From NCBI RefSeq assembly GCF_001677475.2, contig NZ_CP015229.1: 64,000 bases of DNA, one strand, 5' to 3'. The notes under the pieces are model-generated. The model was given only the letters and a program-made list of their open reading frames with translations. It had not been told where the DNA came from and did no database searches. Positions 481-26,548 of this stretch are shown here, in pieces. Origin of the DNA: Escherichia coli (GTDB lineage Bacteria; Pseudomonadota; Gammaproteobacteria; Enterobacterales; Enterobacteriaceae). Positions within the stretch are counted from its first letter, which is position 1, and the number at the start of each line of letters is the position of its first letter. The translations under genes were made by a program, and so were the position numbers.

Positions 481-1068
481 TTATCGAGCGTGATTGCCGC
501 TAATCGCCATCTCTCTGATTGAGCGTAAATCATCCAGGCTGCTCAGTTCCTCTTTCATCTCCCGCTGACGTTCGTGGATTTTAAAGCCCTCCGCCACCAT
601 GGCCACCATCATGGCATCGTTCAGCGCAATAAGTTTCTCCCTGGTCAGTACGACGTTATTATTATCCGCATCAGTCCAGAAAAATCCCTCCGGAAGCAGT
701 CCGGCCTGTGCTGTTGCAACCACGGGGGCAAGGCGTGACTGCGAGGTTTTTCCGCCATCAAAACGACGGCCATCAAACGTGAAAATAAACTCAACGTTTT
801 CCTGACTGTCGCGCCATGCCTCAATTTCCCGCCTTTTGGCATCCTTTGCCGCTGCAATAAGTTCCGGCGTGACGGTGAACGGGGCGATTTCGCCCCATTT
901 CCCGCTTTGCAGCTCCTGCCAGACATGCTGGCCTGTCGGGGCCATATCATCCTGTATGGCGGTATACAGGACGAACTCCGTTTCACCTTCAAATAACACC
1001 TCGCAGTCAACCGCACCATTTTCAAGATAATGCGCGTTTCTGATGCCTTTCACCGCTCTGATTTTCAT
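481..1068 (-). CDS. tfa: Tail fiber assembly protein (lambda Tfa-like)
   Basis: 195-aa ORF downstream of tail fiber gene; size, position and sequence character match the Tfa chaperone family. Confidence 0.8.
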   Translation of the reverse strand: MKIRAVKGIRNAHYLENGAVDCEVLFEGETEFVLYTAIQDDMAPTGQHVWQELQSGKWGEIAPFTVTPELIAAAKDAKRREIEAWRDSQENVEFIFTFDGRRFDGGKTSQSRLAPVVATAQAGLLPEGFFWTDADNNNVVLTREKLIALNDAMMVAMVAEGFKIHERQREMKEELSSLDDLRSIREMAISGNHAR

Positions 1069-1082
1069 GTCTTATTTCCTTA

Positions 1083-3179
1083 TTACTCAATGCGTACAAA
1101 AAGACCGATATAGCCACGCGTTGTATCGTGACTAATGCGGGTCCCCGAAAGCGCCGTGTAACGACCGGGGAAGTTGTATTCACCAGCACCGCCAATCACA
1201 ACCTGCGGTGAGGATGCGTATGTCCCTGTATCGCTAACCCGTGCACTCATAGCCAGAGGGCCAAGACGGGAACCCGGCACAATATCACCGAGCCCCAGAG
1301 ACGCATCTGCACCAAAACTCTCCCCCTGATATGCCGCCATAATCGGCACACCAACGGCCGGGTATTTATAATATGAGCCTGAGCCCGCCATCCTGGACAG
1401 CAGGTACGCCAGTGAATCTCCGTCGTATACAACTACCCGCGATGACATGTTCCAGCTGTTATCGCTGTCGTTGTACCGGTACTGCATATAGTGAATACAG
1501 TGTTCACCCTGATAATACTGGTTGTAGCACATCAGGGTTTTAAATTTGCGGACTGTGTCGGATTCACTGTTGGCGTACGGTGACCACATCACATCAATAA
1601 TGCCGTTAAATTGCGTGGTACCGGTAAGCAGTTGCGAGGAGTCTGTAATACTGACCGCATACCGCCCCGGCGTGACTTTCTTCAACCACTCAACGAAATC
1701 AGACAGCCCCTCAAACGCCAGAGCGTCAGTGCTGGTGAATGCCTGTCCAAACCCATACATCCCGGACAGGGCCAGCCTGCCCGGTGTGCGGTCACGGATA
1801 TCACTCTGGGGTTCCATCGTCGCAGCCGCGTTCAGCTCAAGCTCCGTGCGCATGGCTTCAGCCGTGTCATGCGCCAGTAATGCGCGGCCCTTCTCTGACA
1901 GCAGAGACAGTGAGGCATTCCCGTCTGTATTGAAGTACAGAAGATTATCTGCCCGTTGCGTCAGTGCGCTGATTGCCGTTAAGACGTCATTAAGCGGTTG
2001 TTTGCCTGCCAGCGCGTTTGTGATTGTCGTCGCAAAGTTCGGGTCATTGCCCAGCGCCGCTGCCAGCTCGTTCAGGGTGTCCAGAACTTCCGGCGATGAG
2101 CCAACCAGCGCAGCAAGCAGTTTGCGCACAAACGCTGCGTTCGCTGCTTCCAGACCGGCGGCATCATCCGGTGGGGTTGGGGTGGTTGGGGTGCCGGTGA
2201 AGGCCGGACTGTCCAGTGGCGCTTTTGTTTTCGCCTCGTCCATGACGTCTTTGACAGCCTTTGGCGTGGCAGCCAGTTCCTCGCTGTCGTTGTCCGTATC
2301 ACTACAGAGTTGCACCAGACCTTTTTCTGTCGTGGAGGCATTTGTTGCATTCAGGTCATCAACTATCTGCTGCGCCTCATCCCTGTACTGTTTCGCTTCC
2401 TGCGCATTGTCTGCACCTGCATCCTGGCTGGCTTTAGCCTGTCGGGCGTATTCGGCGGCACTGTTTTTGTGCCCCAGCGCCGCATTTGCCGACAGTTCTG
2501 AACTGGTCGCTGCTGATGATGCGGCATTATGATAAAGGCGGGCGCGTTCGGCGGCATCGACTGATTCGTCCCGCGCTGTGCCTGATGACTGTGCGCTGTT
2601 TTCTGCCTCACCCGCAAAACGTTCCGCATCATCACGGGCCGTTGCGGTTGTCGTCACATCCTGTGCCGTCTGCTGTGCGTTTCCGGCTGCAGCTTCGGCG
2701 CTCTGCTGTGTCTGATTTTTTAGCTCTTCTGCCTCATCCTTACTAACCGCCGCAGATGTTGCTGCATTGATTGCATCATCAGCAGCTGTTTCTGCTCTCT
2801 CCCTGTCACTGACCACCTGCTCAGACAAGCGAACAACGGTATTTACCATTTCCTCAAAACGCTTCATTACCTCAGGGCGTAAATCACCCTCCTTTGGTGC
2901 ATCCAGAAAAGCATTCAGCGTATCCGGCTCATCTGTCGGTGCAACATAAATTTCCCCCGCCTTTACAGGAGGATGCCCTGAGCGGGACAAAAATACATCA
3001 TAAAATCCCGGCTCAGCATTAATAGTATACCCGCCATCACTTCCCGTAAGACAGGTTGCCACAATATTAACCACAACTGTCGGACTGGTTCTTCTGGCTC
3101 GCAATTCAATCGCACAGTTTACGACAGGCTCACCCGCTCCGTCCTTCAGGACACCTGAAATCTTTACTGCCATATTCAC
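1083..3179 (-). CDS. stf: Side tail fiber protein (Stf-like)
   Basis: 698-aa ORF between lom and tfa; Ala/Gln-rich coiled shaft and C-terminal receptor-binding region. Confidence 0.8.
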   Translation of the reverse strand: MNMAVKISGVLKDGAGEPVVNCAIELRARRTSPTVVVNIVATCLTGSDGGYTINAEPGFYDVFLSRSGHPPVKAGEIYVAPTDEPDTLNAFLDAPKEGDLRPEVMKRFEEMVNTVVRLSEQVVSDRERAETAADDAINAATSAAVSKDEAEELKNQTQQSAEAAAGNAQQTAQDVTTTATARDDAERFAGEAENSAQSSGTARDESVDAAERARLYHNAASSAATSSELSANAALGHKNSAAEYARQAKASQDAGADNAQEAKQYRDEAQQIVDDLNATNASTTEKGLVQLCSDTDNDSEELAATPKAVKDVMDEAKTKAPLDSPAFTGTPTTPTPPDDAAGLEAANAAFVRKLLAALVGSSPEVLDTLNELAAALGNDPNFATTITNALAGKQPLNDVLTAISALTQRADNLLYFNTDGNASLSLLSEKGRALLAHDTAEAMRTELELNAAATMEPQSDIRDRTPGRLALSGMYGFGQAFTSTDALAFEGLSDFVEWLKKVTPGRYAVSITDSSQLLTGTTQFNGIIDVMWSPYANSESDTVRKFKTLMCYNQYYQGEHCIHYMQYRYNDSDNSWNMSSRVVVYDGDSLAYLLSRMAGSGSYYKYPAVGVPIMAAYQGESFGADASLGLGDIVPGSRLGPLAMSARVSDTGTYASSPQVVIGGAGEYNFPGRYTALSGTRISHDTTRGYIGLFVRIE

Positions 3180-21783: not shown

Positions 21784-22256
21784 ATATCGGCCTCATCACA
21801 ACAGTCAATGACTGCCTTTTCCAGTGTGTCGCGGATCTCATCAACCACAATCTGCACTTCGTTCAGTTGTGATGCAGTCCACCCCCTGTCCCTCTCCAGC
21901 CTGTCAGGCCAGGTTTCCAGTACCTGAACTATCGCTTTCACCACGACAGAAAACGACCGCCTGACATCACTGACAGGGACAAGCTGAACAGTTTCATGCT
22001 GAAATTTAAGACGCTCGCGCTCGGACTGATACCATGCCTTGCGATCGTGTGGATTCATCTCCTCATCTTCGGTGGATGGTGTTTTTGCCAGCAGCGCAGT
22101 AATCAGGTCCGTCAGGAGATAAAGTTTTTTCTTCTCATTACTGCCCGGAGCAAGAGGAACATCCGCCATTCTTGCGGTAACGGTCTGCCGGTGCAGGCCT
22201 GAAAGGGCTGCCAGTTGATTAATATTTAACTTCATATTTTTCAGCTCGCCGTCCAT
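21780..22256 (-). CDS. Terminase small subunit (Nu1/Noh-like)
   Basis: 158 aa with N-terminal HTH (LNINQLAALSGLHRQTVTARM) immediately upstream of large subunit. Confidence 0.75.
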   Translation of the reverse strand: MDGELKNMKLNINQLAALSGLHRQTVTARMADVPLAPGSNEKKKLYLLTDLITALLAKTPSTEDEEMNPHDRKAWYQSERERLKFQHETVQLVPVSDVRRSFSVVVKAIVQVLETWPDRLERDRGWTASQLNEVQIVVDEIRDTLEKAVIDCCDEADM

Positions 22257-22379
22257 CTACGCCTCCTCCACATACCCCTCTGAACAGAAGTGATTCTGTT
22301 TTTTTGTAAAGAAATGCCGCCACACAAAGATGTCGAACAAAAATTGGCCACAACCATCATCTTTTTTGCATCAATTACA

Positions 22380-22520
22380 TTAAAAACAACAGTTTACATA
22401 CATGATGATGATGACGATAAAATCACAAAAATGCGCTTTTTTCCGCGCCGACCCGCCCCGTGTACAGGCCCACCCCGCCAGGAGGACCCGAAAAATGATA
22501 ATTGTTATCATTTTGTAATG
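22380..22520 (-). other. cos region (cosN/cosB) of the prophage
   Basis: Minus strand reads CGGGTCCT...ACGGGGCGGGTCGGCGCGG (22443-22459), resembling lambda cos ...ACGGGGCGGCGACCTCGCGG, upstream of the small terminase gene. Confidence 0.5.
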
Positions 22521-22718
22521 TGTTCCGGTTTCTTCCACCATCGCACCGGCCAGGCGACTATGAGGGGACAACGCCGCGCTCCGTTAACGCAGTAAACCCC
22601 GGTGTGTATCGTTTTTGATTATCCCCGCACACTCGCGCAGAGGAGTCTCCCGGTCGGGCTGCGGTCTCTGTTAATGCAGGAATACGGCGACAATACCGCG
22701 CATGGATAATAAGGTCAC

Positions 22719-22943
22719 TCAACACACTGGCTGTAATGCAGCGGATACCATGCGGCATTTAGCGGCATTCATCGTACACTCAACGGTCAGCTCTTCATTC
22801 GTGGCATTCACCTGAAAGGTCCGGGAGTGTAATTGCGTACATTTACCACTGAACGAATCTTCAACAAGAACACGACCACGCTGCAAAATACGGAACGGAA
22901 TTGTTCCCTGAAAAGGCTTTACGGTTACCAATAATTTCTTCAT
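22719..22943 (-). CDS. Hypothetical protein downstream of Rz
   Basis: 74-aa ORF from MKKLLVTVKPFQG... with SD GGAGAA; function unknown. Confidence 0.4.
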   Translation of the reverse strand: MKKLLVTVKPFQGTIPFRILQRGRVLVEDSFSGKCTQLHSRTFQVNATNEELTVECTMNAAKCRMVSAALQPVC

Positions 22944-22966
22944 GCATTCTCCGGATAACAAAAATA

Positions 22967-23434
22967 CTAGTTAATACACTGAGTGCGGATATATTCCTGA
23001 AGCATTCTCAATGCTGCCTGGTCGCTGATGATTCCGTCTCTGATACCGAGAACGTTTCGTCCAGCAACCGGAGAGAGTTCGACGGCGGCATCATTGCCCA
23101 CGCCGGAGGTGCCGGTGGCTTCACGCACGGTACCGGGGCAGGTGGCGTTGATCCGCAGGCGCTTACGACCAGCGGCAACATCAGCACGCAGAGTTTCATT
23201 TTCAGCTCTCGCATCGGCTAATTCCCTCGAGTATTTTGCATCGAGCGCAGCAACATCGCGCTGGCGCACCTGCATATCAGTAATGGTTGCGTTTGCCAGC
23301 TCCAGCTCACTGGCTTTTTTATCGCGCTGCGCTTTGTAGGTGATGGCGTTATCGCGGTAATGATTCAGCCCCAGACTAAGCACACCACAGGCTACCAGCA
23401 GGACAATAATCACCACACACAGAACACGGTTCAT
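22967..23434 (-). CDS. Rz: i-spanin Rz
   Basis: Starts [18 protein letters not shown] (TM anchor) then ...[15 protein letters not shown]... lambda Rz-like. Confidence 0.9.
23008..23199 (-). CDS. Rz1: o-spanin Rz1 lipoprotein embedded in Rz (+1 frame)
   Basis: [15 protein letters not shown] lipobox, Pro-rich [15 protein letters not shown], fully inside Rz. Confidence 0.85.
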
Positions 23435-23435
23435 A

Positions 23436-23549
23436 TCACCACCAACGGATTGCCCAGACCAGAACAGCAATGGCTACAATACGAATGGCAAAAGCTGCCG
23501 CTCTTGTTAAATCCAGACTGGCTGGCGTCTCCACTTCAATGCCTTTCAT
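23436..23549 (-). CDS. Putative 37-aa single-TM micro-protein between endolysin and Rz
   Basis: ATG with GAGG upstream; [37 protein letters not shown]; stop TGA 1 nt before Rz ATG. Confidence 0.3.
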
Positions 23550-23767
23550 AATGGACAACCTCAGAAAGAATCTTTTATACTTCCTCACAGGGAAAGCACC
23601 TCCCTACCCATAATTTCTCCCTTGCCTTATCCAAGGTCAGAAACACAACCCCGCTTGCGACCAACAAACGGGGTTTTTACTTTTATTCACTTAGTTTTTG
23701 TCAGTTCGCAGGATTTCGTGTTATCCGTCCGCGTGAGCAAACGCCATTTTTCAGCAAAATATTCTGC

Positions 23768-24301
23768 TTATCTGTCGATACCCCAGCACGCCAGCGCACT
23801 TTCCTGATCTCGCCGGGATACCTGACCGTAGCAATTATTTGAGCGGATACGGCAATCTCTGCCACCGTCCTTAATCCACCAGCGAATCGCTTCGCAGGCA
23901 CCTTTTCGATCACCTGCATTAATTCGTTTATAAAACGTCGACGGGAAACACTTACCGGGGCCAATGTTATACGGGCAGAATGACGCGATCCCCGCTTTCT
24001 GGGGTTCGGTCAGCGGCACTTTGATGTTTTTCTCCACCCATGCCAGCGCCTTGTCACGTTCGATGGCGTTAACCCGGTCGCATTTTTCCTTTGACAGCTT
24101 CATGCCAGGAATAACAGGCTTACCATCCACCAGAATGGCACCACGGCAGATGGTCCAGATCCCCGCACCATCACGGTATGCCGTGGTGTGGTTACCTTCC
24201 TTTTCATCCAGAAACTGGTCGAGGATTTCAGGCGCAGGCGCACCTGCGGCAATCAGCGCCAGAACGGCAGCCGACAGACCGTATTTGATTTTGGTGTTCA
24301 T
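23768..24301 (-). CDS. R: SAR-type endolysin (lysozyme R21-like)
   Basis: 177 aa; weakly hydrophobic Gly/Ala-rich N-terminal SAR segment (GLSAAVLALIAAGAPA) then lysozyme-like body. Confidence 0.8.
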   Translation of the reverse strand: MNTKIKYGLSAAVLALIAAGAPAPEILDQFLDEKEGNHTTAYRDGAGIWTICRGAILVDGKPVIPGMKLSKEKCDRVNAIERDKALAWVEKNIKVPLTEPQKAGIASFCPYNIGPGKCFPSTFYKRINAGDRKGACEAIRWWIKDGGRDCRIRSNNCYGQVSRRDQESALACWGIDR

Positions 24302-24429
24302 GGATATTTATCAGGATTTATCGGTTCCGAATCCCTGGATATGTTAATTCTTCAGCCCGCCAGTGGTGGGCACTGGTGTTTTACCTGATGGCTGAAATAT
24401 ATCTGACAATTCCCGTCGAGGATTTAGCA

Positions 24430-24744
24430 ATGTATAACGATGAACATAAATATACCGCCTGCATGCAGGCCATGAATGAACAATTTAAATCAGCATTCCT
24501 TAAACTCATTCAGCAAAACCACGAAGCAGTAAAATCCATTCAGGCTGAACCGTATGGACACCTCACACCACCAACTCTCGACATTATGTCCAGAATATTA
24601 ACACCAGCCATGCTTCTACGTCTGAAAGACAATATAAATGACTGGTTAAACGAAGAATTAAACTACCTTGAATGTGAGTGGGATCATCATTACGCCAAAT
24701 CACAAAAAGAACGCATCTTCCGTCGATTATCCGGCAACAGATAA
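24430..24744 (+). CDS. Hypothetical protein (alternative start 24376)
   Basis: 104-aa ORF MYNDEHKYTACMQAMNEQ... convergent with the gene below; no recognised motif. Confidence 0.4.
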   Translation: MYNDEHKYTACMQAMNEQFKSAFLKLIQQNHEAVKSIQAEPYGHLTPPTLDIMSRILTPAMLLRLKDNINDWLNEELNYLECEWDHHYAKSQKERIFRRLSGNR

Positions 24745-24753
24745 CGAGCCAGC

Positions 24754-25395
24754 TTATATACGTCCTTTAAGATAAGTCAGTCCTGGATGAAACCAGTAAG
24801 CCGGCACTTTTTTAAAGGGTGAATTATCAAAATCACGAAGAAGAGCCTCCCGCACAACTGCATCCTTGTCCGCACCACTGGCCAGCGCTTCAATCTCAGC
24901 AGCTACCTGCAGATATCCCATGCAACGACCAACGCGCTTCATTAGTCCCTGCTTTTTATTGTTCTTCAGGTAATCAATGGCAAATTCAATGAGCGCCTCA
25001 CTGTGCTGGTGCGATGCTGGTGTTACTTTTCCATCTTCACGGATCGTGATATTCCAGTCATCGCTTGTCACAATAAAAGATGGCCGATTATCCCCCCATT
25101 CCTGGTCTTTATCCGGTGCAGACGCAATAAAATAACGTTTATTGCCTTCCTCTCCGGCACTTTTAACTGTAATGGAGTACTTTTCTGACAATGCGGTCGG
25201 TAAAAACTTTTCCTGCAAAATCTTCGCAAAGGTCCTGCGAGCAATTTTGATGCAATCATCGTAAAACGCTGCTTCCTGCTCATCGCGGCGTTTTTTTTCA
25301 TCTTCAGAAACCATCAGCACCGACAGTTTTTTATTCAGTTCAGTGATTTCATTTTCCAGGCAACTTATGCGCTGATTCATTTCTTCATGGTTCAT
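24754..25395 (-). CDS. Hypothetical coiled-coil protein translationally coupled to the holin
   Basis: 213 aa; N-terminal coiled coil (ISCLENEITELNKKL...); its start codon overlaps the holin stop by 1 nt (ATGA). Confidence 0.5.
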   Translation of the reverse strand: MNHEEMNQRISCLENEITELNKKLSVLMVSEDEKKRRDEQEAAFYDDCIKIARRTFAKILQEKFLPTALSEKYSITVKSAGEEGNKRYFIASAPDKDQEWGDNRPSFIVTSDDWNITIREDGKVTPASHQHSEALIEFAIDYLKNNKKQGLMKRVGRCMGYLQVAAEIEALASGADKDAVVREALLRDFDNSPFKKVPAYWFHPGLTYLKGRI

Positions 25396-25398
25396 CGT

Positions 25399-25614
25399 CT
25401 ACTCTCCCCGCGCCGCCTTACGCCGGTCTTCTTTAATTTTGAAATACAGGTTCGTCAGGTACGTCAGCAGACCAAACAGCAGACTCCCCAGCACGCCTAT
25501 TGCCACCCACTGGGACGGAGAGACTTTGTCCAGCAGCTGCAGTAACCAGTATCCCGTCCCCACCGCTGACGTGGTGTATGACACACCTGTTGTGATTTTT
25601 TCCATCTGGTACAT
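25399..25614 (-). CDS. S: Pinholin S (S21-like) with dual-start motif
   Basis: [71 protein letters not shown] resembles phage 21 S; two Met starts 3 codons apart. Confidence 0.85.
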
Positions 25615-25786
25615 ACCCCGTCTCCCGTTATCCGGAAGCTGACAACAATAAAAAAGCCACCCGTTAATTACTGATGGTCCTGATACCTCATACATCAGAA
25701 AAATAATTCTGCTCTATGGTTTACATTCAAAATTATCATTTATACTTTTCAGAACATCACCAGCAAGGCATAAATAAGGAAACTAA

Positions 25787-26122
25787 ATGAAGTGGATTGT
25801 GATTGACACAGTTATCCAGCCATCATGTGGAATATCTTTTTCAGCCATATGGAGTAAAATAAAATTAATAATCTGGTATCAATCGGATGTTTTCTTACCT
25901 CCTGAAAGTATATTTACGCTGACTCACACAGGTATCGTACTCAATAACAAAGTGCTACCTGTAACCATTTACAACGTTGTACCATTCAATAAAAGATTCT
26001 GGGATTTAATCAAAAACAGCCAAGAATGCCCTGCAAATTCAGATAACGTATTTAATGAATGCTTTAATAACCGTTGCATTCTGCAAATATGCCCCTACGG
26101 GCTAAAACGACACAGGCCATAA
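25787..26122 (+). CDS. Hypothetical Cys-rich protein in low-GC DNA
   Basis: 111-aa ORF with SD AAGGAAA, opposite strand to late operon, C-terminal [25 protein letters not shown]. Confidence 0.45.
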
Positions 26123-26383
26123 TAAGTTTACGCATGTCTGATAGAATCTGTAGAACCTGTTTATATAAAAAGCCCCTCAGGAGAGGGGCATGCTTGCATG
26201 GTGCCGGGTGCCTCCCGATGAATTCAGTATCAGTACCCGAATCAGCATAATAAAGGAGCAGAACAGAAACATACATCACTCATATGCCCACCACCCGGGG
26301 GGATCCACCATGCAAATTTTTTCTAACAAAAGCTCCGTCAACCAGCAATGCCCAATCAACTTAATTGTGATGGATTTAACATT

Positions 26384-26548
26384 TCACGTCTGTGTATTTT
26401 TTACACTCTTCAGCAAAGGCAACACCATTATCACCATCCCCGCCACCAGCACACCATCTGCCAGTACCGACATCAGCCGTCCGGTGAAATCCACTGCCAC
26501 TACCAGAAACAGCAGGATGGCAGCCAGCACAAGGCGCGCACTTTTCAC
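26384..26548 (-). CDS. Putative 54-aa two-TM membrane peptide, GTG start overlapping preceding stop
   Basis: VKSARLVLAAILLFLVVAVDFTGRLMSVLADGVLVAGMVIMVLPLLKSVKNTQT; GTGA overlap with upstream gene. Confidence 0.4.
   Translation of the reverse strand: MKSARLVLAAILLFLVVAVDFTGRLMSVLADGVLVAGMVIMVLPLLKSVKNTQT

Follow-up and report, generated by a model that had tools for sequence, protein, structure and literature searches.

Does the spacer between the endolysin gene R and the spanin gene Rz of an Escherichia coli prophage hold a gene of its own, and what might such a gene do for the phage? The question arises from a 64,000-nucleotide (nt) stretch of contig NZ_CP015229.1 (assembly GCF_001677475.2; hereafter the window), in which a prophage lysis cassette on the minus strand comprises a holin gene, a gene for 213 amino acids (aa), R, and Rz with the embedded gene Rz1. 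The spacing from the R stop (23768) to the Rz start is 333 nt. An open reading frame (ORF) of 37 codons plus TGA was read from the sequence of this spacer (23436..23549, minus strand), with the start ATG at 23549..23547 and the stop TGA at 23438..23436; a GAGG at 23562..23559 lies 9 nt 5' of the ATG, and a single base (23435) separates the stop from the Rz ATG at 23434. The original prediction had described an ATG ORF with an upstream GAGG in a gap of about 330 bp, a stop one nucleotide from the Rz start and a 20-residue hydrophobic helix. All of this is borne out, the hydrophobic stretch comprising 18-21 residues with one internal Arg and being predicted to form a single transmembrane (TM) segment. 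No further copies of the peptide gene were found in the 64-kb window.

Evidence for a coding sequence between R and Rz

When the R-Rz gap is shuffled, 27% of the resulting sequences contain a sense-strand ATG ORF of at least 37 codons, and ORF length was dropped as evidence for a gene; since the ORF alone is no better than chance, the reality of the gene rests on comparative data. A pattern scan of IMG/VR yielded 80 loci with the ORF, among which two lineages were distinguished: lineage 1 resembles the window (S21 holin, R, Rz), and the flanks of lineage 2 are entirely different. Between the lineages about 20 of the 37 codons differ, 16 by purely synonymous third-position changes and 4 by I/L/V replacements. 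The Nei-Gojobori comparison gave 19.5 synonymous and 4.5 non-synonymous differences and a ratio of non-synonymous to synonymous rates (dN/dS) of 0.026, and the variable alignment columns at codon positions 1, 2 and 3 of the ORF frame numbered 6, 0 and 25. In the two shifted sense frames and in two antisense frames dN/dS was above 1. Among 85 copies sampled, 84 have the ORF intact, and out of 5426 complete E. coli genomes 798 carry the 153-nt coding sequence (CDS; at least 80% coverage). The signature of a protein-coding gene, a frame-specific synonymous excess with start and stop conserved, is present. In homologous regions, where conservation of the frame had been named as the point on which the prediction should stand or fall, the frame, the ATG, the stop and a GAGG-type Shine-Dalgarno sequence are all conserved.

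The opposite reading, that the ORF arose by chance in a non-coding spacer and owes its conservation to DNA-level elements such as the Rz ribosome-binding region, could draw on the ease with which shuffled gaps reach this length and on the low dN/dS (0.086) of the antisense frame with shared wobble positions. The ORF in that frame (23470..23613, plus strand) was rejected as a candidate; its low ratio is a by-product of wobble sharing, and its ATGs are lost in lineage 2. The substitutions fall overwhelmingly on third positions in the ORF frame, and even relatives with only about 35% identity retain the start, the stop and the TM design. The pattern of synonymous changes, the lineage comparison and the distant relatives effectively refute a chance origin, and by the same comparisons the ORF is almost certainly a genuine protein-coding gene.

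The ORF had been described as unannotated, which is true only for the supplied ORF track with its 60-aa cutoff. In RefSeq, the Prokaryotic Genome Annotation Pipeline (PGAP) annotates exactly the 37-aa ORF as hypothetical protein WP_000675931.1, and the identical protein occurs in many E. coli genomes. In phage GER2 the ORF is annotated as AVD99013.1, and other sources name the product 'hypothetical' or 'putative transmembrane protein'. The ORF is absent from the supplements of a Ribo-seq study of intergenic small genes in strain Sakai, and a spanin survey and a survey of lysis in Stx (Shiga toxin) phages make no mention of it. Searches with the peptide against Pfam, NCBIfam and PADLOC, and a profile search of PDB, gave no match. 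Regarding PHROG families, the 50-aa form introduced below matched phrog_4493 with an E-value of 1.4e-24 over profile positions 1-54 and belongs to this family, the 37-aa form matched it with an E-value of 5.5e-16 over positions 14-54 of 56, and weaker matches were obtained to phrog_1115 and phrog_3246; all three are labelled 'unknown function'. Membership in PHROG 4493 and identity with WP_000675931.1 are direct at the sequence level, with no difference to report, and as these entries carry no function they leave the mechanism unexplained. The gene is already catalogued but uncharacterised, and it belongs to the small accessory membrane proteins of phage late operons.

Start sites, transcript structure and product

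The frame is open upstream of the ATG as far as a GTG at 23588, 13 codons earlier, and the probable full CDS has 50 codons (23436..23588, minus strand; MRKYKRFFLRLSI followed by the 37 aa). The start at ATG 23549 given in the original prediction would then be an internal Met, Met14 of the long form, and the CDS most likely begins at the GTG. A profile search of 1.84 billion representative proteins returned 36 relatives with the same layout (M-x-x-Y-[KR]-[KR]-x-F-R-[LM]-R-x-S-M-[KN]-x-G-[LI]-E-x-x-A-P-...-S-[RK]-A-x-A-F-[AF]-[IL]-R-(TM)-[IV]-R-W-W), the distant ones (35-55% identity) being 50-62 aa long. Among 12 diverse units, 11 have an in-frame upstream start (8 ATG, 3 GTG) located 2-3 codons before the conserved Tyr, and the internal Met is invariant in all 12. 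The leader (Y-K/R-K/R-x-F-R-L-R-x-S-M) is conserved as protein, with synonymous codon changes, whole-codon indels and a Ser encoded by TCN or AGY, and because its variation is of this kind it appears to be translated.

The internal AUG has its own signal. The GAGG that would serve as its Shine-Dalgarno sequence (23559..23562, minus strand; 9 nt spacing) includes a conserved AGR codon: the Arg 3-4 codons before the internal Met is encoded by AGG or AGA in 12 of 12 units, as against 10 of 45 for other Arg codons, and an NTG codon always precedes it, which yields a conserved UGAGR 6-9 nt before the internal AUG. As both starts carry conserved signals, two isoforms are likely, and the reading as a long CDS beginning at GTG 23588 with a dual start is held with moderate confidence from these sequence patterns. 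An upstream ORF of eight codons (ATG GGT AGG GAG GTG CTT TCC CTG TGA; 23585..23611, minus strand), likewise read from the sequence, overlaps the GTG start with its TGA (GTGA). Aligned with the A-type paralogue described below, its ATG falls on the start ATG of that gene; a 23-nt insertion puts it out of frame in the window lineage, and in-frame conservation of this small ORF is absent in lineage 2.

Upstream of the starts the transcript is predicted to be structured. Hairpin 1 (23647..23675, minus strand), located by terminator scan and RNA folding, is terminator-like, with 12 pairs, and is flanked 5' by an A-tract and 3' by a U-rich tract; a comparably strong hairpin of different sequence precedes the gene in the other family members examined. 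Hairpin 2 (CCUUG-N7-CAAGG; 23620..23636, minus strand) is a predicted fold whose 3' arm runs into a purine-rich, Shine-Dalgarno-like stretch. A second hairpin between the terminator-like one and the start is predicted in 10 of 14 independently folded units, with stems that differ (CCUUG/CAAGG, CCUAU/AUAGG, CUUUA/UAAAG and CGUGU/GCACG). Directly before the GTG, a small stem-loop (AGGGAGG...UCCCU; 23589..23605, minus strand) with a predicted 7-bp stem would pair the GGGAGG Shine-Dalgarno sequence of that start. A promoter scan found no sense-strand sigma-70-like promoter between the hairpin and the ORF; because such a site is missing and a terminator-like hairpin stands upstream, the gene would be expressed only as part of the late operon. 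Synonymous sites of the coding part are saturated, yet the 39-nt leader is identical between the lineages at 36 of 39 positions, a near-identity that would fit overlapping constraints but is not fully explained by them.

A sigma-70-like site (TGGACA-18-TATACT, 10/12; 23552..23581, plus strand) is antisense to the leader and points toward hairpin 1, and the hairpin near 23647-23690 also has a T-run on the plus strand. Together with the structured 5' leader that sequesters a Shine-Dalgarno sequence and the unusual nucleotide-level conservation of the 39-nt leader, these elements recall a type I toxin-antitoxin module, in which the hydrophobic peptide would be the toxin and an antisense RNA would run from the promoter-like site to the hairpin. 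The type I toxins Hok, TisB and ZorO are likewise peptides of 30-50 aa with one hydrophobic helix, and their 5' leaders too are structured and hide the Shine-Dalgarno sequence; the present gene, unlike theirs, has no conserved antisense RNA gene and is coupled downstream in sense orientation within a late operon. Only 6 of 12 family units have the promoter-like site at the corresponding position; it consists of conserved codons, of which it is probably a by-product, and the number of promoter-like matches in the scan equals the shuffle expectation. An Rfam scan of 22000-26500 at E<=1 gave no match in the R-Rz gap, only STnc100 upstream of the holin gene. The antisense promoter was rejected as a candidate on account of its occurrence in only half of the units, and a type I module is very improbable.

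At the other end, the gene adjoins Rz through the junction UGG UGG UGA U AUG (23432..23444, minus strand), that is, Trp-Trp-stop followed by the Rz start, where the window sequence UGGUGGUGAUAUG sets GGUGGUGA, which resembles a Shine-Dalgarno sequence for Rz, ahead of the Rz AUG. Genes of the family end in (I/V)RWW-stop and the next gene usually follows 0-5 nt later, and the TGA-N-ATG junction is kept in lineages 1 and 2 despite a different downstream gene. Elsewhere Rz is abutted by other upstream genes: R overlaps Rz in prophage Qin of strain K-12, and peptides of the B-type and D-type (see below) abut Rz. The coupling that the original prediction had read from the one-nucleotide distance gains weight from a junction kept even where the downstream gene is not Rz, and translational coupling of the ORF to Rz is probable. 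Ribosomes ending on the peptide would re-initiate at Rz, and the insertion would preserve the usual coupling of Rz to the gene before it.

The same conserved stop-N-ATG junction within a Shine-Dalgarno-like sequence, and the coupling of Rz to whatever gene precedes it in other cassettes, would also suit a role in cis only, in which translation of the ORF brings ribosomes to Rz past the structured intergenic region and the peptide itself is irrelevant. Such a role does not need amino-acid conservation, yet dN/dS is far below 1 as given above and the replacements are all conservative, and the TM segment and RWW end are kept in units with no gene immediately downstream (unit 1 of each of the IMG/VR loci L087 and L088). 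The probability left to a purely cis-acting ORF is accordingly very small.

Regarding the product, the best 17-residue segment has a Kyte-Doolittle mean of 2.51. On the Hessa scale the sums are -0.66 kcal/mol for the peptide, -0.47 for the TM domain (TMD) of the holin, -4.07 for the TMD of Rz and +3.2 for the signal-anchor segment of R. AlphaFold2 with the family alignment predicted a helix at residues 3-14 with low confidence, a disordered linker and a helix at residues 25-49 with a predicted local distance difference test score (pLDDT) of about 90; the net charge is +5 in the leader and -1 in the linker. On these models the product is in all likelihood a membrane peptide with a single TM segment. 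It would be a tail-anchored inner-membrane protein: an N-terminal helix (KYKRFFLRLSI) that is basic and probably amphipathic would be joined through a short acidic linker to the one TM segment, and the chain would end in the periplasm with Arg-Trp-Trp. By the positive-inside rule the long form would be oriented N-in/C-out, i.e. tail-anchored, and the short form, without the five positive charges, would be less constrained in its topology. The peptide is not an i-spanin: its periplasmic part has 3 residues, and it does not match PF03245, which the downstream gene does.

Distribution among phages and possible role

The original prediction proposed that small membrane peptides in lysis cassettes can act as lysis modulators. 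Taken as a dedicated modulator of the signal-arrest-release (SAR) endolysin R or of the spanin Rz, acting through TM-TM contact like a releasin or a partner-specific antiholin, the peptide would be well placed in the R-Rz gap and coupled to Rz, and relatives are found immediately upstream of Rz or of signal-anchored lysozymes. There is a precedent in gp25 of phage Mu, a membrane-tethered protein that controls SAR endolysin release (PMC9239132). This releasin, of family DUF2730, has an N-terminal TMD and a cytoplasmic part and is encoded near SAR endolysin and spanin genes, and DUF2730 members also occur in phages with cytoplasmic endolysins (PMC9239132). The present peptide likewise is a small membrane-tethered protein with a cytoplasmic part, encoded near such genes; unlike gp25, its TM segment is C-terminal, it is much smaller and it matches neither DUF2730 nor any other Pfam family, so that it is not classed as a releasin.

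The contexts of the gene weaken a modulator specific to R and Rz. In lineage 2 a peptide of about 90% identity follows Phage_holin_8 and Phage_holin_3_7 holins and a soluble endolysin of the GH108/PG_binding_3 or Peptidase_M15_4 type, and no recognisable Rz/Rz1 or u-spanin was found in these cassettes. The downstream gene there encodes a 60-aa lipoprotein of phrog_7528 (IMG/VR loci L077, L082, L059 and L074, about 600..2330), which has an LVGC lipobox and is labelled 'unknown function'. Within lineage 1 the peptide is unchanged while the N-terminal TMD of Rz varies (MNRVLCVV... versus MNRVLYGV...), and homologous cassettes work without any peptide, as in Qin of K-12, where rrrQ overlaps rzpQ with no gap and no insert. 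A partner-specific modulator is therefore unlikely, and on the evidence of its distribution the gene is best described as a portable late-operon accessory cassette, not a dedicated partner of R or Rz.

Other R-Rz gaps are occupied by other mini-genes; of their products, the A-type peptide (phrog_1115) is a paralogue, and the B-type peptide (phrog_4906) of 43 aa is unrelated. The E. coli prophage gaps at L005 (2826..3174), L006 (2689..3015) and L101 (1990..2318) hold the A-type paralogue (60 aa), the 43-aa B-type TM peptide and a 28-aa RWW form in combinations, and some of these inserts have the appearance of recombinants or of fragments that lack a start, a sign that such mini-genes turn over rapidly. 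In Stx phages the gap contains a 45-codon D-type ORF (phrog_6632) that ends in IRWW-stop one base before Rz. Phage TL-2011c (L100, 1991..2128), phage SPN3UB (L103, 1801..1938) and numerous Stx1a/2a/2c phages carry this ORF ((GTG)VFDFSKLIREIRVMAEKLSTWKYILIWLVFVIMASGYFIGQIRWW), within which a GGGAG stands before an internal ATG. It was found in 53 phage records, and most of those listed leave it without annotation. The D-type peptide resembles the present one in its R-Rz and baseplate slots, size, two-start layout and (I/V)RWW-stop junction, but the profiles align only over the last 8 residues. Homology of the two was rejected on this ground, and the D-type is an analogous or tail-sharing family.

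Presence or absence at a fixed junction is also the mark of morons, as defined for the late operons of HK97/HK022 and P22-like phages (PMC2629481). Like a moron, the gene is inserted between genes that are adjacent in related phages (Qin of K-12; alternative inserts at L005, L006, L100 and L101), is present or absent at otherwise syntenic junctions with a high flux of alternative inserts, and is dispensable for the flanking functions. Unlike one, it has no detected promoter of its own, its hairpin lies upstream and not downstream as a terminator, and it abuts and is coupled to the next late gene.

Rz also follows a family member in a prophage remnant of Salmonella and in one further contig, and other family members lie directly upstream of signal-anchored lysozymes. 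The Salmonella remnant (L092-L094, 3001..3601) consists only of a family member (49 aa, leader truncated at the boundary) and Rz beside a host hydrolase gene; its protein is indexed in 1647 blocks of the collection, i.e. the remnant is widespread. In L087 (3001..3903) five tandem genes for small TM proteins, two of which end in VRWW, stand between a major capsid gene and a SAR-type endolysin gene, with consecutive units separated by almost identical GC-rich hairpins, as if a unit of hairpin plus gene had been duplicated.

The explanation favoured overall, at slightly less than even probability, is that of a portable late-operon membrane peptide with a dual start and coupling to Rz that tunes lysis. 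The gene would be transcribed within the prophage late (lysis) operon. Its first start would be GUG 23588 (50 aa), with a GGGAGG folded in a stem, and its second AUG 23549 (37 aa), with its own UGAGG Shine-Dalgarno sequence; two isoforms would probably be made which differ by five cytoplasmic positive charges, formally like a dual-start holin/antiholin pair. The unit, composed of hairpin or hairpins, structured leader, peptide and RWW-stop junction, would be portable and non-essential, as related cassettes occur without the peptide or with others. Because the neighbouring lysis proteins differ among carriers and the peptide is nearly constant, its target would be the host membrane, a host protein or its own assembly rather than a particular phage lysis protein. 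By tuning the membrane state late in infection the peptide would influence the timing of holin triggering or endolysin release whatever the type of cassette. This generic lysis-timing role, put forward tentatively and by analogy, is suggested by several placements beside endolysin or Rz genes and by a design that resembles holin/antiholin genes: expression would be strictly late, the ribosome-binding site is predicted to be structured, there are signals for two starts, and the single helix is moderately hydrophobic.

An RNA stem, the sdi structure, lies at the ribosome-binding site of lambda S. In dual-start holin/antiholin genes the longer product carries extra N-terminal positive charge (PMC9636201). 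The present gene is comparable with these systems (lambda S105/S107, phage 21 S68/S71) in encoding a small, predicted TM protein within a lysis cassette, between R and Rz, in having sequence signals for two in-frame starts, of which the longer product is predicted to have more N-terminal positive charge, in the RNA stem at the ribosome-binding site, and in a TM hydrophobicity close to that of the pinholin TMD. It differs in having one TMD where holins have two or three, in starts that are 13 codons and five basic residues apart instead of 2-3 codons and one basic residue, in the absence of homology to any holin family in PHROG or Pfam, and in its position after the endolysin gene in a cassette that has a separate S21-type holin; the family also occurs outside lysis cassettes. 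The gene would, by analogy, work most like a dual-start holin/antiholin gene, but it fails the tests of homology, TMD number and C-terminal tail.

Several observations weigh against the favoured explanation. Searches of Pfam, NCBIfam, PADLOC and PDB revealed no homology to a holin, antiholin, releasin or defence family, the C-terminus is only RWW and not the charged tail that holins typically have, and a literature search for the accession and peptide strings found no paper. The upstream start in the window is a GTG with a sequestered Shine-Dalgarno sequence and 10-nt spacing, and PGAP picks the 37-aa form; with such a start overlapped by an upstream ORF, the short form may predominate and the long form may be minor. 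The near-identity of the leader could stem from recent recombination or another nucleotide-level constraint. Distant family members immediately follow major capsid genes, come after tail-fibre genes, precede a portal-like gene or, within a baseplate module, adjoin a sheath-initiator gene on its upstream side, so that adjacency to lysis genes is no rule.

This scatter is the chief support of the main rival, according to which the product is a late accessory membrane peptide unrelated to lysis timing, acting in anti-defence, in envelope block during assembly or in another part of host takeover, and merely occupying tolerated slots such as the R-Rz gap. Taken together, the present family and the D-type occupy capsid, baseplate, tail-fibre and portal-side slots besides lysis slots, the D-type being found in the baseplate slot (between a baseplate assembly gene and a sheath-initiator-like gene) in Salmonella phage SEN34; the peptide is indifferent to the accompanying holin, endolysin and spanin, and one related PHROG is labelled 'moron... 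membrane protein'. Against this stand the lack of a PADLOC match, the several independent placements that adjoin endolysin or Rz genes, the likeness of the dual-start and structured ribosome-binding-site design to lysis-gene control, and the failure to detect a sense promoter of its own, which makes expression in the lysogen unlikely. A function apart from lysis is the most probable of the rivals, though less likely than not.

A more far-reaching proposal, to which a low probability is given, extends the favoured explanation to both peptide families. Hairpin-bounded genes for dual-start, RWW-tailed single-TM micro-proteins, the present family and the D-type among them, would be widespread among phage late genes without having been recognised as a class. 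Whatever the cassette, their products would regulate the lysis clock: the two isoforms, opposite or locked in topology, would work on membrane energisation in the manner of a portable antiholin/holin pair. Recombination would carry the genes from phage to phage, with exchange at the hairpin upstream and at the RWW-stop/start junction.

The surrounding cassette and significance

The genes flanking the ORF were assigned from profile matches. Rz (22967..23434, minus strand; 155 aa) is an i-spanin gene matching PF03245 (E 6.8e-40) and phrog_13 (E 4.8e-74), and the ORF list places in it the Rz1 o-spanin lipoprotein (23008..23199, minus strand; start approximate), an Rz1 family lipoprotein being annotated at the equivalent place in strain Xuzhou21. 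Directly 3' of Rz, an 80-aa ORF (22719..22961, minus strand) matches phrog_2571 only at positions 98-172 of 291 and looks like a fragment of a longer gene. R (23768..24301, minus strand) encodes a lysozyme-type endolysin (PF00959, E 3.2e-24; phrog_7) with a signal-anchor-like N-terminal segment (YGLSAAVLALIAAGA).

The holin gene (25399..25614, minus strand) encodes an S21-type class II holin of 71 aa beginning MYQMEK... (PF04971, E 2.1e-32). The ORF list has it as 98 aa (25399..25695, minus strand), but annotated homologues have 71 or 68 aa; the form of 71 aa resembles S21 71/68 in its two Mets, though no basic residue separates them, and the MYQMEK start is common to relatives with and without the peptide. 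Between holin and endolysin lies the 213-aa gene (24754..25395, minus strand; phrog_1085, no Pfam match), an interval that in relatives contains different genes (YdfR/DUF1327-type and others), and a 122-aa ORF (24376..24744, plus strand; phrog_1853) lies on the opposite strand inside the lysis cassette. Just 5' of the holin gene, Rfam gave a full-length match to the small RNA family STnc100 (26167..26342, minus strand; 93.7 bits, E 4e-20), whose position suggests a short leader transcript of the late promoter region.

The evidence for a selected gene is very strong, the dual-start/RWW pattern is a testable lead, and no new mechanism is demonstrated. Should the peptide prove to have no phenotype, a correction of annotation would remain, as the start is probably GTG 23588 and the ORFs of Stx phages need to be called; an analogous, mostly unannotated ORF is present in many of these phages and often not called. 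About 15% of complete E. coli genomes carry in a lysis cassette a conserved, strongly selected gene that has been ignored as 'hypothetical', and these peptides are a potential clean model for dual-start micro-proteins. Lysis timing sets the burst size of a phage and, in Shiga toxin-producing E. coli, the time of toxin release. The function of the peptide, whether it is a modulator of the lysis clock, has another late membrane function or is a selfish cassette, would fill a gap in the lambdoid lysis paradigm.

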